This document shows positions 8,666 to 51,700 of a DNA stretch of 64,000 bases, piece after piece. This DNA comes from Narcine bancroftii (Eukaryota). Numbering within the stretch: the first letter of the stretch is position 1; every line of letters starts with the position of its first letter. Position numbers and translations under genes: made by a program. The stretch covers positions 226,982,001-227,046,000 of the forward strand of contig NC_091469.1 in assembly GCF_036971445.1 (NCBI RefSeq), written 5' to 3'. The notes under the pieces are model-generated. The model worked only from the letters and a program-made list of their open reading frames with translations. It did no database searches and was not told the DNA's origin.

Positions 8666-11600
8666 TGTAGCGTGGTCACTACAGTTATAGCTCGATGTAT
8701 AATGGGTTGTTGCTTGAGGTTGAAAGAAGACTCACACACCAAGGGAGTGTAATCAACACTGACTTTATTGGGCTGCAGCTTTGCCTTTTATAGGCAGCTG
8801 GCTGTGTCATGACTAGGGCACGGTTTGAGCGAGGCCAGCTGCTGATTGGCTGTCCTGGATGCGCAGTCCCAGATTGGAACCCCTGCAATCCGCTGCAGGT
8901 GACTGGTTGATTCGACTGTTATTTCTGCGGCCTATTCCTGTGTCTCATCCTGCATGCCATCTACCCAATCATCGTGATCGATGACTCTTTGCTGTGTCAG
9001 CCCGTGGAGTGGGCCACAGGCCACCACACCCCCTCCCCCCCCCCCCCAGAACTGGTGATTGTGACACTTTCTTTTGGTGCACGACCCCTGAGTCGTGGGG
9101 TTGGGTGAGTAACTGGGTGGTCAACATCCAAGTGAGCTTGGTATCAGCTGGATGAGTATGAAGGTCTCCTCCCTGCCACCAATGTCCAACACGCAGGTGG
9201 AGCTGTTGAGCCTGATGACATGGTATGGCGTTTTATAGGGCTGTTGAAGAGGTGGCTGGTGGGTCCCGTGTCAGACAAATATGTAGTGATAGCCTGCCAT
9301 GTTCTTTGGGACAAAGGAGCTGGCTTCCCCATGAGCTCTGGGCTTAATTGGGGTTAGTGAGCCCAGGCACTTGCGAAGTCGAGACAATGTGGTTGCCACA
9401 AGCTCCCTCAAGTTCTCAGAAGCCACCATGAATACACCTGTGATGAATAGGTACATAGACCAACTCAGCAGAGGATGCCTCAAGATCCTCTTTTGGGGCA
9501 GTGTGAATGTCTAGCAGGACCCAAGGGAATTCATCTGCCCAGTCGGGCCATCAGAGCTGTCCTCAGGTGCCTGTTGAACCTCTCCACCAGCCTGTTGGCC
9601 TGTGGGTGGTATGTTATGGTGAGGTGGAGTTGAGTCCCCAGAGCAATTGCTAAGGCAGTCCACATGCTAGAGGTGAATTGGGTCCCCTGTCAGATGTTAA
9701 GTGTTCAGGGATTCTGAATCGTGTTACCCAGGTGTTCAGTAATGCCTGTGCACATTGTCTCCTTGGAGATTTCAGGTAGCAGCACTGCCTTTGGCCATCT
9801 AGTCAACCAGTCAACCATGTTCAATAGATAACGTGCCCTTCTGAATACAGGAAGGGGCCCCACAATGTCTATGTGCACGTGGCTGAAACAGCAGCGTGCT
9901 CGTTTGTAGGGCTGTGGAGGGGCTTTAATGTGGGTCTGGACCTTGGATGCCTGGCACTGAGTACATTTTGGCCCATTGAATGACCTCCTTATGGAGGCCG
10001 TGCCAGACGTATCTGTTGGCCAACATTCTAACTGTAATCCTGAGCCAAATTGTGGACCAAATCAAAAACTTGCCTCCTCCATGTGACTGGAATGATGGGG
10101 CATAGTTTACCAGCTGAGGTGTTGCAGAACAGCGTATGGTTACCTGGAACGATCTAGATGTCCTCCAGTTGCAGGCCAGTAAGTGCAGTCCGTTACGCCG
10201 GTATGTCAGGGTCTGCTTACTGCACATCTGCCAGGGCCACATAGTAAATACCCAGGGTGGGGTTGTGCACTGCTAGGATAGCCGGATGGGATAGAGCATC
10301 AGTTACCACATTGGACTTGCAAGAAATATGTTCAATGCCTGTTGAAAATTCAGATATGTAGGATCAGTGCCATTGTTGCCTGGCTGACCATGAGTCTGTC
10401 ACCTTGCTGAAAGCAAAGGTAAGTAGTTTGTGGTCTGTGTAAATTTTGAACTTCCATGAAGTAATGGAAATGCCGAATTGCCAGGTATAACGCTAACAGC
10501 TCCCTATCAAAGGCACTGGACTTGAGTATCTGGTTAATGGACAGTGGCAGCTGCTGGCCTTTTTCAGTAAACATCTCAGGCCACCAGAGTGTAAGTACAT
10601 CCCCAACCACTGTGCTGGAGGCAGCTACCGTGAGGGTGGTCGGGTTGTCTGTCCTGGGAAGCACAATGAAGTTGGCTTTGGCTAGGGTGTCTTTGGTTGC
10701 TTGGAAAGCCTCGGTCACCCCTGTGTGTCCATTAAATGTCTTTACTGGGCCCTGCCATGAGGGGAAATAGTGGGCTCACAATGTGGAGCCACTGCAGGTA
10801 TGAAGCGATGATAAAAATTGACCATACCTACAAACTCTTGTAGTCTCTTCACAGTCGTTGGTCTGGGGAAGGAATGAATAGCATCCACTTTGGTGGGTAA
10901 CGGCCTGGCCCCATGTTGATCAATGCGATGGCCCAGGAAATCAATTGTCTCTCTGCCAAACTGGCACTTGGTTGGATTGATGGTTAAACTGAACTCACTT
11001 AGTCTGCAGAAAAATAGTTATAAGTGAGTGGCGTGCTCGGGGCGGGTGTGGCTAGATATTAAAATGTCATCAATGTAGATGAAGGCGAAGTGCAGATTCT
11101 GACACACTGCATTCATCAGCCTTTGGAAAGTTGTTCAGCCTGAATGGCGTGCGGAGGAATTCGAACAATCCAATGGGGTTATAATGGCAGTTTTGGGAAT
11201 GTAATGGGTTGAACTGGGATCTGATGATAACCCCTGATGAGGGCCACCTTAGAGAATATCCGTGCCCCTTGCAGAGTGGTGAAGTCCTGGATATGAGGCA
11301 TGGGATACCTGTCAGGTATGGTGTCCTCATTCAGGCAGCGGTAGTTTCCGCACAACTTCCCGTTGCCTTGGGTACCATATGGAAGTGGGGAGGCCAATGG
11401 GCTATTGGAGCGCTGTATAATGCCGAGTTCCTCCATCTTTCAAAACTTTTCTCTATCTGGGTTGAGTTTCTCGGGGGGAAACGCTGCGCACTGGCAGTGT
11501 AGTGACAGAGGGGAATTCTGCTAAGACTCGAGCGATTCATTGTCGGCAGTACTCACCGAGTGTAGCTGGGGGTTAGTAAGTTCGGTGCCCTTGAGTGAGA

Positions 11601-45184: not shown

Positions 45185-46232
45185 TATATTCATGAAGTCA
45201 AGATATATAACTTACATGTTCACAAGTTGCCCATAAATATCCTTTAAGTGCTGCCAGAATATTTCAGTAACCTCCAAGGTACAAAACAGAAAGAGTGTAA
45301 AAGACTCTTTTTATGCACCAGAAAAATTGTAGCAGTACTCATCGAGAAGAAAAGAAGTCAATCCATTCAGATTAAACACTAATACGTTCCCCAATAATAA
45401 ACCAGTTTTTCCAATTATTCTCTGCTGGATGTGTCAGATTTTATAAAGTTTTGGTGAATACATAATTGTCACTTAGATGAAATGCTGTTCTGAGAATGTT
45501 TTGAGCATTGCTGTTCTTTTTAGAATTATTAATCACCCAAAAGGCCTGAAAATATCCGATGCATCATATTTATTGCAAATGTTTAATTATTAATAATTTA
45601 TATAATAATTATCTGCATCTGTTTGAGAATTTAAGTCAACGAGTAACATTATATTTATCATTTTGTCTGGATCACTATAAGATTGTTGTATGGTTTTGCA
45701 TTCCAAGTGTTAAAGGGTTGAAAATGGCTCCTGACTCTTTTCTCCCCTCCTCCCCTTTAACTCCTCAAACATTAGACTGAATAAATGTAGTGATTTTAGA
45801 AAAAATGTAATTATTGCTTCTGAAATGAATATGTTTTACTGCACATTTAATTTTGACATGCACTATAATCTATTGAAATATTGCAGAATCTTATTAGTTT
45901 GTTGAATATTTGAGCATGGCTTTAAGCTGTCTTGCCAGGTCGAGATATTAAACAAGAATAATTTTGAAATAAGAGTGGAAAGAATAATGATGATCTACGT
46001 TAAGGCACTGAATGAAGAACATTGAAAACGGATTGAATATTTGGAGTTCTATATTTGATCCAAGAAAAAGCCAAAATAATTTTAAAATTGTTTCCAATCT
46101 ACTTTTTGTTCAGACTTGAGCAGCAGGTGTTTTGAATTGATTAGAAGGAATTTTCTCTTAACAGTTTTGAATCGATTTAGTAAATACCTGCATTTGATGG
46201 AATTTAAGACCCACAGGCATATTAGAACCCCT

Positions 46233-48727
46233 TGTGGTCAATGTCTGCCAAGCTGCCTGTCTCCCCTCTGGCGAGACTTGCTGTACTAACATTGGCTGTG
46301 CATTATCTCTACTGTTAAGGACACTCCCCTTGGGTATAACTGTGTATGCACCTAATTTTTTATTGTACCATGAGTTTCTGATAAAAGCCATGATTATTGT
46401 TTGACCACATCATCTTTGTCTGCTTCATCAACTGGCACTTCAATTTTATTAGCAGAAATAGATGCAGCCCTCAAGCCAGAGCGGCTGATAATCGACCAGT
46501 CTGTCCCGAGGGTGAGAGAAAATTTCAGCCACTGGATTGCTTGTTTCAATTACTACATGGCTCGAAACAATGTGGTTGATGAGGCGATACAGTGGGGCCA
46601 CCTTAACTCTCTGTTGGGTGAGGTCCCTTTCGTCGTAACGCAAGGAGCTACCACTCTGGCTACAGCCCGGGAACATCTAACTGCTTACTATGCAGTGCCA
46701 CGGAATGTGGTGCTTGCTCGACACCAGTTGCTGACTAGACGCCAGAAACCCGGGGAAAGTGATGCTGCCTCTGCCCTGGCTCTCAACTCACTGGCAAATG
46801 AATGTGATGTCAGGGTAGTCAACGTGCAACAACACCACAATGCCTTGAAGCTGGACGCTTTTGTCAACGGTATTGACTCCAGTTACATCCGACAGAGGCT
46901 GCTGGAGATGGAGCCCTTAACCTACGACCAGGCATTCACTCTAGCCAAAACACTGAGAAGTGCCATGCGGTCCAGTGAAATGCTAGAAACCGAAAAGGAA
47001 ACATCCAGGAGTGTTGGAACCACAAAGGAAAGAAAAGGGTGAACTCCTGAAAAATGCTACTTATGTGATAAGAGCTGGCACCCCAGACAGAAGTGCCCGG
47101 CCCTATTTGCTACCTGCAGCTATTGTGGGAAACTCGGCCACTTTGCTAAAGCATGCAAGGCGAAAAGTGCTCCCACTGATAAGAAGAAGAGAAGCATGAA
47201 GAAAATGCGTCCTGGAGCTGCAGGAATGGAAGACAACTGTGAAAAGGGGGAATCTTCAGACGAGCAGGCTGAATCCACTTCAAGTGACGGTGAGGTGAGA
47301 TCCCCTGTGATAGCTCAATTGACTGTAAAGCTTGGGGGATGTTACGGACAGGAACAGTTGACTATGAAGGGGGGATGTTACGGACAGGAACAGTTGACTA
47401 TGAAGGGGGAGGTGAATGGTGAGACTCTTGATTGTCTAATAGACTCGGGGAGTACTGGCAGCTACATCCATGAGAGAGTTGCTAGAGCTTTATATTTGTG
47501 GAGATATCCAGCAAACCGAAAGGTATCGATGGCTTGTAGTGAACTTACAAAAACTGTACAGTCGAAGTGTAAAGTTACTTTAAATTTGCAGGGACATTGC
47601 CTTGCTGATGTGTGGCTCTTAATTATGCCAGAGCTCTGCACCCCCGTGTTACTGGGGTTAGATATTCAATCTCAGATGAACAGTGTAGTGTTAAATTTTG
47701 GTGGGCCACTACCCACACTTACCATCCCCACGCTAGTTACTGCAGTCTGTCTGCATTAAAGATCAAAGCTCCTTCCCCTTTCAGTGATTTATCCCGAGTG
47801 TCAGCAGATTACCACTAAGAGCCATTCTTACAGCAAAAAGGATCGTGAGTTTATCAAAGCAGAGACCCAGAGACTGCTTAAAGAGGGAGTAATTGAACCT
47901 AGTAAGAGTCCGTGGAGGGCCCAAGTGGTAGTCGTGAAAAATCACACTAAAATACGACTGGCTATTGACTCAGCCAGACAATCAACCATTACACGAACCT
48001 GAATGCCTACCCCCTGCCACGCTCATGTTAAATTCCCAGACGGGAGTACTGACACTGTACCCCTAAGAGATCTGGCCTCGCCTGGTTCGCCCCTTCCTCA
48101 CACCCCTACTCAGAGTGAGCCTGAGAGATTGGGCTCACCCTACCCCCCCCCCAACCTGTGACCCCTAGTAAGCTTTCAGATGGCCATGCTGAGGCTCCAC
48201 TGCCTCAAGCTGGTGATTCTGGAGCGGGTCCAGAAGTCAGTCCTTCCCACACTACAGACCCAGGAACTGTACCAGTTCCTAAGGTTGCAAAGGAGCCACC
48301 TGTTTTGAGATGAAGCACAGAATTTGTAAACAACCTGATAGGCTAACATATTCATAAAACATCTCATTATATTTCGATTGCTTGCTAGATACTGGCATAT
48401 TTTGGCTGTAAGAGTATTCTCAATGCCAAACATGGTATCCATGTATCGCTTGCTTCAGTCTTTCCTTGCAGCTGTCCTTTTGATTTTAACCCTTCTTCTG
48501 CTGGGGGGAGACTGTGGTGAATGTCTGCCAAGCTGCCTAACTCCCCACTCTGGTGAGCCTTGCTGTACTAACATTGGCTGTGCATTATATCTACCGTTAA
48601 GGACACTCTCCTTGGGTATAACTGTGTATGCATCTATTTTTTTATTGTACCATGAGTTTCTGCTAATAAAAGCCATGATTATTGTTTGACCACATCATCT
48701 TTGTCTACTTCATCAACTGGCACTTCA
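46233..48727 (+). mobile_element. Mag-like Gypsy provirus; gag-protease retained, RT-RNaseH-IN core deleted
   Basis: LTRs 46233-46442 and 48513-48727, perfect 5-bp TSD CCCCT, PPT ggggggagac; gag ALKPERL with two CX2CX4HX4C knuckles (47055-47156), protease LIDSGS, RT start SKSPWRAQVVVV/AYPLP joined to the integrase tail AHVKFPDG. Confidence 0.92.
46458..47759 (+). pseudogene. gag-protease polyprotein remnant
   Basis: Probable start ATG>ATA at 46458; one frameshift near 47030; knuckles in frame with the DSG protease; 36-bp tandem duplication (GGCYGQEQLT x2). Confidence 0.8.
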
Positions 48728-51700
48728 CCCCTTCCCTTCCATTTTAGCGGGAGACTTTAGGAAAAAATTGTTTTAGTGTATTTGGTGAGCGGGTTCCTCC
48801 TGTAAGGGCCCTTGTAGATAATGCATGTATGTGTGTCTTCACTCACTTCAGTGGAAACCATCCAGCCCTCCAAGGCTCAAGATGCTTCTTCCCAGCCTCC
48901 CGCCCCACTGTGCAAATGCTGATTGATGGCCTAGAAATTGGTAGCAATGAATTGCTGTTCCAAAACTTGCACCCAGGAGCGCTGCACAGATTGTTTCCTT
49001 GTGCCTCAGGGCAGGAGTGATGGCAGTCTGCTGATCACAATGGCAAAGACCAGCCAGTGGGATTGTGATTGTGGGAACATAGTTTAACGGGATGGTGTGG
49101 AATAGGGGGAATTAGGCTTAGGTTTGGAAGAGGTGGAGAGACTCTCAGCAATTTTATTTGGGATCAGCTGCAGTACTCCTTTTCAACCTTGTTATACATT
49201 CAGGAAAGTAAATACATATTTTACATCAATTTTCTGGCATGATCCATAAGTTCATTTGACGATAAGCCTCAAAGTAACTTTCCACTTGCAAGAGGCAGCT
49301 TTCAAAGGGGCCTGGATTTACATTGACTAACATCATTCAATCCCCTGAATAATAGAATGGTAGGTCAAACGCATGGATAGAAGTAACTTTCTTACTGGTA
49401 AATTCCTTACGAGTACTTTTTAACCCACTTGGACTGAATGGTTTAGCTAGTTTCTTACTGGCATGTAGTACCACCTTATTGCTACCTCTGGTCTAGCTGA
49501 GTTTATTAGTAAACAAAATAAACTCAAGATAGCCATTAGATTTGGAAATGTTCAACATTGTAGTTATAGAATCTTGTCTAAATCTTGGTTAAAGTCTATT
49601 GTTTAATGGGAAATAAATTAGCCCAAGAACCGTGGTGGTAGATCAAAAAACTATGGTTAGAAGCAGGTCTAAAATCCTCTATATAGGAGCAGAGTTCCTG
49701 CTTTCATCACCACAAAAATAACCTGCTTGATGAACTCGGTGAGATGGGCATCATCTGTGGAGGAAAAGGAATGGTTGATCCTTATCAGGATTCCTGCAGA
49801 TCCTGCTGGACCTGATGAATTTTTGCTCTATATTCCAGCATCTGTAGTCTTCTGAATTCATCCAATTTAAAATTCTGATAAGATTTAAGCTGAGCCAGAG
49901 GGAGAAGATCACTAGAAATAAAATGCAAAAACAGTTATGTGGTCCTATAAGTTGGACCTGCCCATCAGCGTCATGACTGGCAGGTGCCTCAACTCCACCC
50001 TATAGCCTGATTGCCATTTCCTTGGATTCTCAACATTTTCAAGCTCTGACCTCGTAAAATAGGCTGATGGAGAAAATCAGAGGAACTCAGTAGAACAAGC
50101 AGTCAGGGCAATAGCTCAGCCATTAACGAAGTTTGAAATGCTTTTATATTGCAAGTGCCAGATGGTTTAAGTGGCAAGAAGTTTTGTTTGTCTAAAGTCA
50201 CCTCATTTGTTTTCATTTGGGGATTTGCAATTGTCAGCCACACAATAACCTAAATTCTTCAGAAAAGGGCTAAAGATGCCCCCAACATTAACCCCAGTTG
50301 TTTAAAATGGCTTGCCAGCAGAATATGTGTCTCCACTGAAAAGCTTAATGCTAAGATTCTCAAGGAGGAAAGTAGAAACTTCAAAGGATGTCACTTAGCA
50401 TTCCATTCTGTTTGAGATTGCTGGAATATACACAAAGCATACTGCAGGACCTTGTCCATGCTTTTCCATACATTTATTTTAATGGGTGATAAATGAGCTG
50501 CAACTTCCCACAGAACATGGACATAATTCCCTGTTGGGAATTTAAGACCACGCATTTCCTATGCAGTGGACATGGGCTTGAACCCAATCTATATCACAGT
50601 AGTAAATGACAACTTTGTGCTCTTGGACAGCAGCTACAACCACTAGGAGTGAATGGGTAAAAATTTATCTGTGAGTTGCTGCTCATATTCTGACCATGTA
50701 CCAGAATCCTCTAGTGGGTAACGTGTATGATCACCCCATAAAATCACACATTGTGATTCAATTTTTTTTTTTGCTATTACATTGGGTTAAAATTGAAAAT
50801 GATGCTTCAACTTTCTAGTAATGGTGCCTGGTACAGAAAGTGCACACTTACTCCCTTCAGTCTTGCAACCTTCCATGCACATTCCAATAATGAGGTAGAA
50901 TTCAATAGAATTCAATCCCCTGGCTAGGCATACATCTTTACAGCTGTGTGTGAAAGTTGCGCTCCGCACATATTTTGTAACATGGGAATAGAAAGCAAGA
51001 CAGTTAAAAATACCAAAGGTTCCCAACTAAAACATTAGCCTTTTTTGCTCTCACTGACTGACCCACTGTGCAATTCAAAGATTTCTTTTTTTTTTAAAGT
51101 CCTATTGATTTACAATCATTTTATTTTTCTGTGAAAGGAAAGAACAGATTCTTGGTTAAACCTTAGAAATTAGCAAAGAATCTGTGTAACAAAAGCAAAT
51201 CTCAATGGATTTAAAGTGGCTGCTGGGAAAATTGAAGACTGAAAGAGTAATTGTGAGTGGACTCATGACATTTTAACCGATAAGATGGTTGTACACTTCT
51301 ACATTTCATATGTTGTTGAAGACATAAAAATGGGATGTTAGAAATTAAAGGATGAAAAAATGCATACAAGGGCAAGAGGGAAGATTTAGTGCCTCGATGG
51401 TAATATAATTGGCCAGGTTGAAGGCCAAGGTGATCCAACAACATTATGTTCACCTTAGTCTTGCATATTTTTAGAAGAAACACTTGAATTTATATTGTAC
51501 TTTTCATAATATTATTCCTAAAAAATCATACATTCAATAAAGTTCTTCTCAAGCATCGTCACTGATTAGAATTTAGAAACTTTGACAGGTCCACTTTCAG
51601 ACAGCCAGTTCCCCCAAACACCACTGTGATTTGACCAAGAATCTTTTTCTGAGGGTGGGAGCACATCAGAAATAAAACATCGGGCATGACATCAGGAGTA

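Follow-up and report, generated by a model that had tools for sequence, protein, structure and literature searches.

A self-complementary primer-binding site in a clade of animal Ty3/Gypsy retrotransposons points to probable priming by the element's own RNA

The window analysed here, a stretch of 64,000 nt of the Narcine bancroftii genome (contig NC_091469.1, positions 226,982,001–227,046,000), contains at positions 46233–48727 a dead, internally deleted copy of a high-copy Ty3/Gypsy family (Table 1). The family shows the features of this superfamily, namely TG..CA long terminal repeats (LTRs) with a target-site duplication (TSD), a polypurine tract (PPT) and the order gag-PR-RT-RH-IN, and the best relative of solved structure is the reverse transcriptase (RT) of Ty3 (E 1e-30). 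Both LTRs, which begin with TG and end with CA, differ by 11 substitutions over 210 aligned nt (K2P distance 0.054). About 2 kb of pol is missing relative to a 4.47-kb family copy (blastn), and the window copy is thus not a full element. An exact 36-nt tandem duplication is located at 47334–47405, just 5' of the protease. Elsewhere in the window, a decayed RT fragment of an unrelated Gypsy element lies on the minus strand (10772–11143); judged by its motifs, it is presumably CsRn1-like.

Table 1. Features of the Ty3/Gypsy copy, numbered from the first nucleotide of the window.
Feature	Position	Strand	Basis or remark
TSD, left copy, CCCCT, 5 bp	46228..46232	+	sequence
5' LTR, 210 nt, TG..CA	46233..46442	+	LTR comparison
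TATAA, likely core promoter (predicted function)	46335..46339	+	sequence; ATTGG (CCAAT-type) ~43 nt upstream
Self-primer segment (candidate), damaged 5'-LTR copy, 3 nt missing	46375..46386	+	duplex not predicted in window copy
RCC motif just 3' of paired segment: predicted cut-site context, 5' arm of short second helix	46387..46390	+	RCC in 23/25 families
TGGC, short second helix, 3' arm	46433..46436	+	
Single unpaired A separating LTR end from PBS	46443	+	CAA in 25/25 families
Self-complementary primer-binding site (candidate), 15 nt	46444..46458	+	
gag remnant; start codon mutated (46458–46460), in-frame stop 47040–47042, twin zinc knuckle 47055–47156	46458..47402	+	
Aspartyl protease	47403..47666	+	PF13975, E 7e-10
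N-terminal RT remnant	47760..48022	+	blastn vs 4.47-kb family copy; ~165 nt deletion near 47969, ~1.8 kb pol absent near 48022
Integrase C-terminal remnant, no chromodomain hit	48022..48345	+	
PPT, 1 nt 5' of 3' LTR	48503..48511	+	
3' LTR, 215 nt	48513..48727	+	
Intact LTR copy of PBS-complementary segment	48657..48671	+	contains AATAAA 48665–48670
TSD, right copy, CCCCT, 5 bp	48728..48732	+	

The first-pass annotation had noted that the 5' LTR is followed by no TGG-type tRNA primer-binding site (PBS) but by a 15-mer complementary to a segment of the 3' LTR. Both statements hold: no TGG was found, and after a lone A (46443) past the terminal CA, nucleotides 46444–46458 are the 100% reverse complement of 48657–48671 over all 15 nt. 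As also described there, the partner begins 40 nt past the first T of TATAA (48617) and overlaps AATAAA. The 3-nt loss noticed in the 5' LTR copy of the segment is real. None of the 19 other top-ranked family copies shares it, and with the damaged 5' LTR of the window copy no duplex is predicted. The suspected overlap of the gag start with the end of the PBS is seen in other copies, whose start codon begins with the final A of the 15-mer; in the window copy this codon carries a mutation.

A DNA search of the 3.3-Gb host genome returned 2241 first-look candidates, 40 of which were scored. A protein that NCBI assigns to Narcine bancroftii agrees with this genome at 100% over its first 110 residues, as expected of an electric ray or close kin. 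An exact complement of at least 10 nt lies inside the copy's own 5' LTR in 16 of the 20 best family copies, ranked by likeness to a query that itself includes the PBS. Where both LTRs and a TSD are present, the complementary segment follows the 5' LTR only, which is the position of a PBS. Loci L121–L145 and related ones of the host genome belong to a young sister family in which the two LTRs hardly differ and long open frames are numerous; its gag gives more than 18,000 first-look candidates there.

Using the natural RT frame of a family copy as a query, 852 relatives were found, the named ones in sharks, rays, a sea anemone, corals and nematodes. Gag sequences were collected from 80 metagenome loci (gag alignment), 55 loci of the host genome (two gag queries) and 20 family loci, and were grouped at 80% gag identity into 33 clusters. 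The best copy carries an exact 10–19 nt complement to its own LTR, starting 1 nt after the CA, in 25 of these 33 clusters, which are related and not independent; 5 of the 25 come from the host genome and 20 from metagenome contigs, and two print as offset 3 owing to a CA-CA run. The PBS is preceded by CAA in all 25 families. Directly after the LTR partner come GCC (19), ACC (4), and GTC or ACT in the rest, which makes RCC in 23 of 25. When the upstream sequence was shuffled, an anchored match of at least 10 nt appeared in 6 of 5000 trials, with a maximum of 10 nt. Of the eight clusters without an exact match, three are imperfect in the same register, three have only 36–118 nt of upstream contig, and two have no partner. 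The latter (L074 and L102/L107) offer enough upstream DNA, and no partner for the post-LTR segment was detected within 450 nt; decay or a different priming mode would account for L102, L107 and L074. Locus L206:1–3259 holds pieces of two different families of the clade together, probably a nested insertion.

The register is held by different letters. There are 23 distinct 12-nt PBS sequences among the 25 families, and the PBS pairs with its own LTR at a mean of 11.96 of 12 positions, versus 7.5 across families, where 5 of 600 pairs are perfect; the representatives are the best-pairing copies, and the per-pair table is thus selected for pairing. A chance inversion was rejected as the origin of the complementarity, since the 25 families keep one register with different letters. 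Because of the way the representatives were chosen, 28 copies from four families of the host genome (8/14, 7/17, 11/11 and 2/2 distinct copies) were also aligned with plain MAFFT, using no structure information. In this alignment 96.2% of cells are paired and two-sided changes occur at 5 of 14 pairs (19 cells). None of 500 shuffles reached either the paired share or the two-sided cell count, in a control that ignores relatedness, while kinship inflates two-sided counts; registers slid along the alignment are at most 61% paired. The sister family has the same duplex with a two-sided change relative to the window family, and one duplex pair occurs as A-T, G-C and C-G inside a single cluster; pairs 1–6 are rich in A/T, and the poly(A) signal partly dictates them. 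The covariation between the post-LTR 15-mer and the LTR segment that the first-pass annotation had proposed to look for is thus present, both among aligned families of the host genome and across clusters: letters change and pairing holds, at a constant position 1 nt past the LTR end. Together with this fixed register, the two-sided changes strongly support the reading of the segment as a self-complementary PBS, from which we infer priming.

In folding predictions, the in-register duplex has a probability above 0.5 for 23 of the 25 families (median 0.97). In addition, 18 of the 25 families show a short second helix beginning at RCC, compared with a mean of 5.9 and a maximum of 12 in shuffled sequences. 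A second U5 helix in Tf1 is reportedly the subject of one paper. G-T accounts for 14 of the 67 non-Watson-Crick positions of the duplex, by our estimate no more than decay would give, while the second helix is closed by G-T in 9 of 18 families. Such a distribution fits templated copying of the PBS.

The RT tree (78 rows, unrooted, with stops in decayed rows read as X) excludes L104, L085 and L117, which have no full RT, and includes four rows (L078, L080, L083 and L102) with no confirmed duplex. Its references are fish chromoviruses (14 rows) and a K02A2.6-like set (14 rows, only 2 of which carry the K02A2.6 label), and Tf1, fungal, named Mag A/B/C, Cigr-1 and MolGy elements are absent from it. 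We take the K02A2.6-like label to mark Mag. The window family, on its own long stem, falls within a 44-row clade (100/100), and both the chromovirus rows (100/100) and the K02A2.6-like rows (100/99) lie apart from it. Regarding the proposed choice between Mag and sushi, the RT is thus outside the sampled fish chromoviruses, with a chromovirus sister to the 44-row clade not rejected (AU p 0.249). The clade is not nested in the K02A2.6-like set and appears weakly as its sister (94/82, 88% of bootstrap trees, long branches meeting).

Among the matches listed, neither the chromodomain PF00385 nor PF24626 (SH3_Tf2-1) occurs in any of 120 relatives, whereas PF00385 is present in 12 of the 14 chromovirus rows. 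The twin gag knuckle is found in 70 of 72 long clade proteins, 25 of 25 K02A2.6-like proteins and 0 of 10 chromoviral ones. An exact 5-bp TSD flanks the window copy and 11 of 24 other loci tried, the rest being decayed, mis-trimmed or without an LTR pair. The label 'Mag-like' given in the first-pass annotation fits the knuckles and the TSD but not the RT, which forms a separate long-branch clade; as far as sequence features go, the element is Mag-like in gag and TSD and is not a sampled sushi element. Rfam models matched none of five loci at E 1 or better, giving no known self-cleaving ribozyme there, three pattern matches in viral contigs included no relative, and a protein atlas search returned generic gag names only. 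Two other Gypsy lineages were encountered in the host genome: a decayed sushi-type chromovirus (L196:4097–4312, minus strand) whose relatives carry PF00385 and whose LTRs were not found, and an abundant decayed family (L188–L195, L199) that gives an SH3_Tf2-1 hit, has LTRs containing CT microsatellites and is placed apart from the chromoviruses in the tree.

These features are compatible with priming of minus-strand DNA synthesis by a piece of the element's own RNA instead of a tRNA, with a Tf1-like logic and a cut in cis, which we regard as likely for the clade; self-priming in the broader sense, counting the cis form together with a variant acting in trans, is very probable clade-wide. Transcription would start about 15–40 nt upstream of the paired segment, which would then fold onto the PBS and close a loop of 24–72 nt that opens with RCC and usually contains the short second helix. 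A cut just before RCC, most likely made by the element's RNase H as in Tf1, would leave a 3'-OH facing U5. In most families the primer would end in a poly(A) hexamer, so that the 5' poly(A) signal would be masked by the duplex as well. Given the upstream start, the primer would have 15–40 unpaired nt at its 5' end; this would differ from Tf1, and the extension would have to be stopped or trimmed during plus-strand synthesis. When the primer is copied into plus-strand DNA, the sequence of the LTR segment would be written back into the PBS, and this would account for the joint change of the two.

The start-site estimate comes from promoter motifs. ATTGG together with TATAA or TTAAA occurs in three families of the host genome, the window family and two sisters, and points to a start about 15–38 nt upstream of the paired segment (about 15 nt in the window family and about 38 nt in a sister family). 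Only 3 of the 25 families have a TATA-like motif in the 90 nt that precede the segment, and for this reason the estimate rests on the families of the host genome. The proposed Tf1-like pairing of the transcript 5' end with the PBS is thus supported in that the PBS pairs with the element's own LTR RNA, but is probably not exact, as the motifs put the start upstream. In a sequencing-run search, none of the runs listed as holding the element is recorded as RNA. Contigs from four runs cover the LTR of a sister family and carry no start, end or strand information; one A-rich loose end 11 nt past the paired segment, seen in 2 contigs, carries too little weight to be used. If polyadenylation took place 15–25 nt past AATAAA, only that short stretch would be left for strand transfer.

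The hairpin could instead serve only to hide the poly(A) signal of the 5' LTR, with priming performed by something else, a role that the first-pass annotation had offered as a second function of the duplex. In 18 of 25 families, the end of a hexamer A[AT]TAAA (AATAAA in 10, ATTAAA in 8) lies no more than 1 nt from that of the duplex, and the segment is predicted to be paired in the presence of the leader and far less so without it, the asymmetry needed for differential use of the 5' and 3' LTRs. Hiding the signal is nevertheless not the whole story, because A[AT]TAAA is absent from the duplex in 7 of 25 families, three of them without any near variant. The clearest such duplexes are those of L081, L104 and L105, where the paired segment ends in AGA, not AAA, and the PBS is changed to match. 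Occlusion, moreover, requires neither a fixed 1-nt distance to the LTR end, observed in 25 of 25 families, nor a conserved RCC, and with the duplex in the place of the PBS, another primer would have nowhere to bind. Masking as the sole function is therefore improbable; as a second role, plausible for the 18 families and not general, it can accompany priming, and it leaves the fixed distance to the LTR end unexplained.

It is similarly improbable that the primer is a short RNA of the element's own sequence made separately, such as a transcript terminated near the promoter or a fragment of a second genome, and that it anneals in trans without cis cleavage by RNase H. This would require the same complementarity and the same register, and trans priming has been reported for Tf1, according to the title of a paper. 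The strongly predicted cis fold argues against it, as do the conserved RCC and the second helix, which is more frequent than in shuffled sequences; these suggest that a folded substrate is recognised and cut.

Priming by a tRNA half or another small host RNA, with the LTR match as a by-product, is much less probable still. Half-tRNA priming is described for some copia lineages (PMC6317226), and the PBS of mosquito Mag elements is of the tRNA-Leu, -Ser or -Arg type (PMC3286476). The host tRNA set, 28 distinct nuclear tRNAs with 14 anticodons, was compared with the PBS as the first-pass annotation had suggested: the best match to a tRNA 3' end is 1 nt, and with no TGG either, a Mag-type site was not recognised against this set. 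The best internal match is 8 nt, between the anticodon loop of tRNA-Ser(GCT) and the segment of the window family, but it stops 5 nt short of the LTR edge, and the other families of the host genome reach only 6–7 nt. The 8-nt overlap (L220–L249) is probably due to chance. The 23 different PBS sequences, moreover, track their own LTRs. A search of the host genome with a Mag-type PBS motif gave 33 hits versus 34 for the reversed control and no recognisable Mag element. In another Gypsy family of this genome, examined as a positive control for a tRNA PBS, the LTR ends were decayed or buried in microsatellites. Just as improbable is a duplex that buries the gag start codon to control translation or packaging: the codon overlaps or abuts the duplex in the window family and others with leaders of 15–19 nt, but leaders range over 15–45 nt, the codon lies well outside the duplex in most families, and it is the LTR-side register that is constant.

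Self-priming by own RNA, the reading preferred here, has known counterparts. Tf1 and Tf2 of Schizosaccharomyces pombe, Tj1 of S. japonicus and the Tf1/sushi group of self-primed chromoviruses have no tRNA PBS and carry a PBS complementary to their own LTR-derived RNA (PMC7175516, PMC4600332); in Tf1 the PBS is paired with the first 11 bases, and the RNase H cut falls between bases 11 and 12 (PMC7175516). The clade resembles them in a PBS complementary to its own LTR RNA in the right polarity and in having no tRNA site among the 28 host tRNAs. It differs in that none of the 120 listed relatives has a chromodomain or SH3_Tf2-1, in its twin-knuckle gag and RT placement, and in a duplex of 10–19 bp, 1 nt past the CA, usually ending in a poly(A) signal and followed by RCC. 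The promoter motifs further suggest that the paired segment lies well after the cap, in contrast to base 1 in Tf1. With the Mag lineage (A, B, C/SURL) the clade shares the twin zinc knuckle, the 5-bp TSD, LTRs of ~200 nt, a single gag-pol frame and a length of 4–4.9 kb (PMC11117352, PMC3286476); the tRNA sites of mosquito Mag and the RT position of the clade outside the K02A2.6-like set separate the two. Cigr-1, Saci-2 and MolGy1/MolGy2 are named animal Gypsy clades outside Mag and the chromoviruses (PMC6238403, PMC2582038), and the clade may be one of them. Saci-2 is described with a CCCH gag motif (PMC2582038), in contrast to CCHC here, and the word PBS is absent from the main text of PMC6238403.

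Beyond yeast, self-priming has been predicted from self-complementarity for the plant TAR/Houba copia and Tcn1 elements (PMC6317226), which implies that the mechanism is not confined to one lineage; these belong to a different superfamily or chromovirus lineage and to plant hosts. In the parts of the literature covered, self-priming was found for Tf1/sushi, Tcn1 and plant TAR and not for this clade; Repbase and GyDB were outside that scope, and a prior mention is possible. The feature is real and clade-wide and most likely reflects self-priming, a known mechanism that would occur here in a new form. We propose tentatively, at slightly less than even confidence, that self-priming arose separately from Tf1/sushi in a large animal Gypsy clade spanning corals, nematodes, sharks and rays, with a primer cut inside R at a conserved A-R-A^RCC junction and usually ending in the poly(A) signal, which would couple 5' masking to priming, and with the PBS rewritten from the primer in each cycle of reverse transcription.

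With the register fixed, the predicted cut site is precise enough to test, and members of the clade can be annotated by a simple sequence rule; LTR finders requiring a tRNA site would miss them. If self-primed, the clade would probably escape silencing by tRNA fragments that target the PBS. In the literature covered, Tf1 of fission yeast is the only element for which self-priming has been demonstrated experimentally; for its chromovirus relatives and a handful of plant lineages it is a prediction. If the reading is true, an abundant animal clade of different architecture would be a second case and would mean that LTR elements abandon their dependence on tRNA more often than has been assumed.
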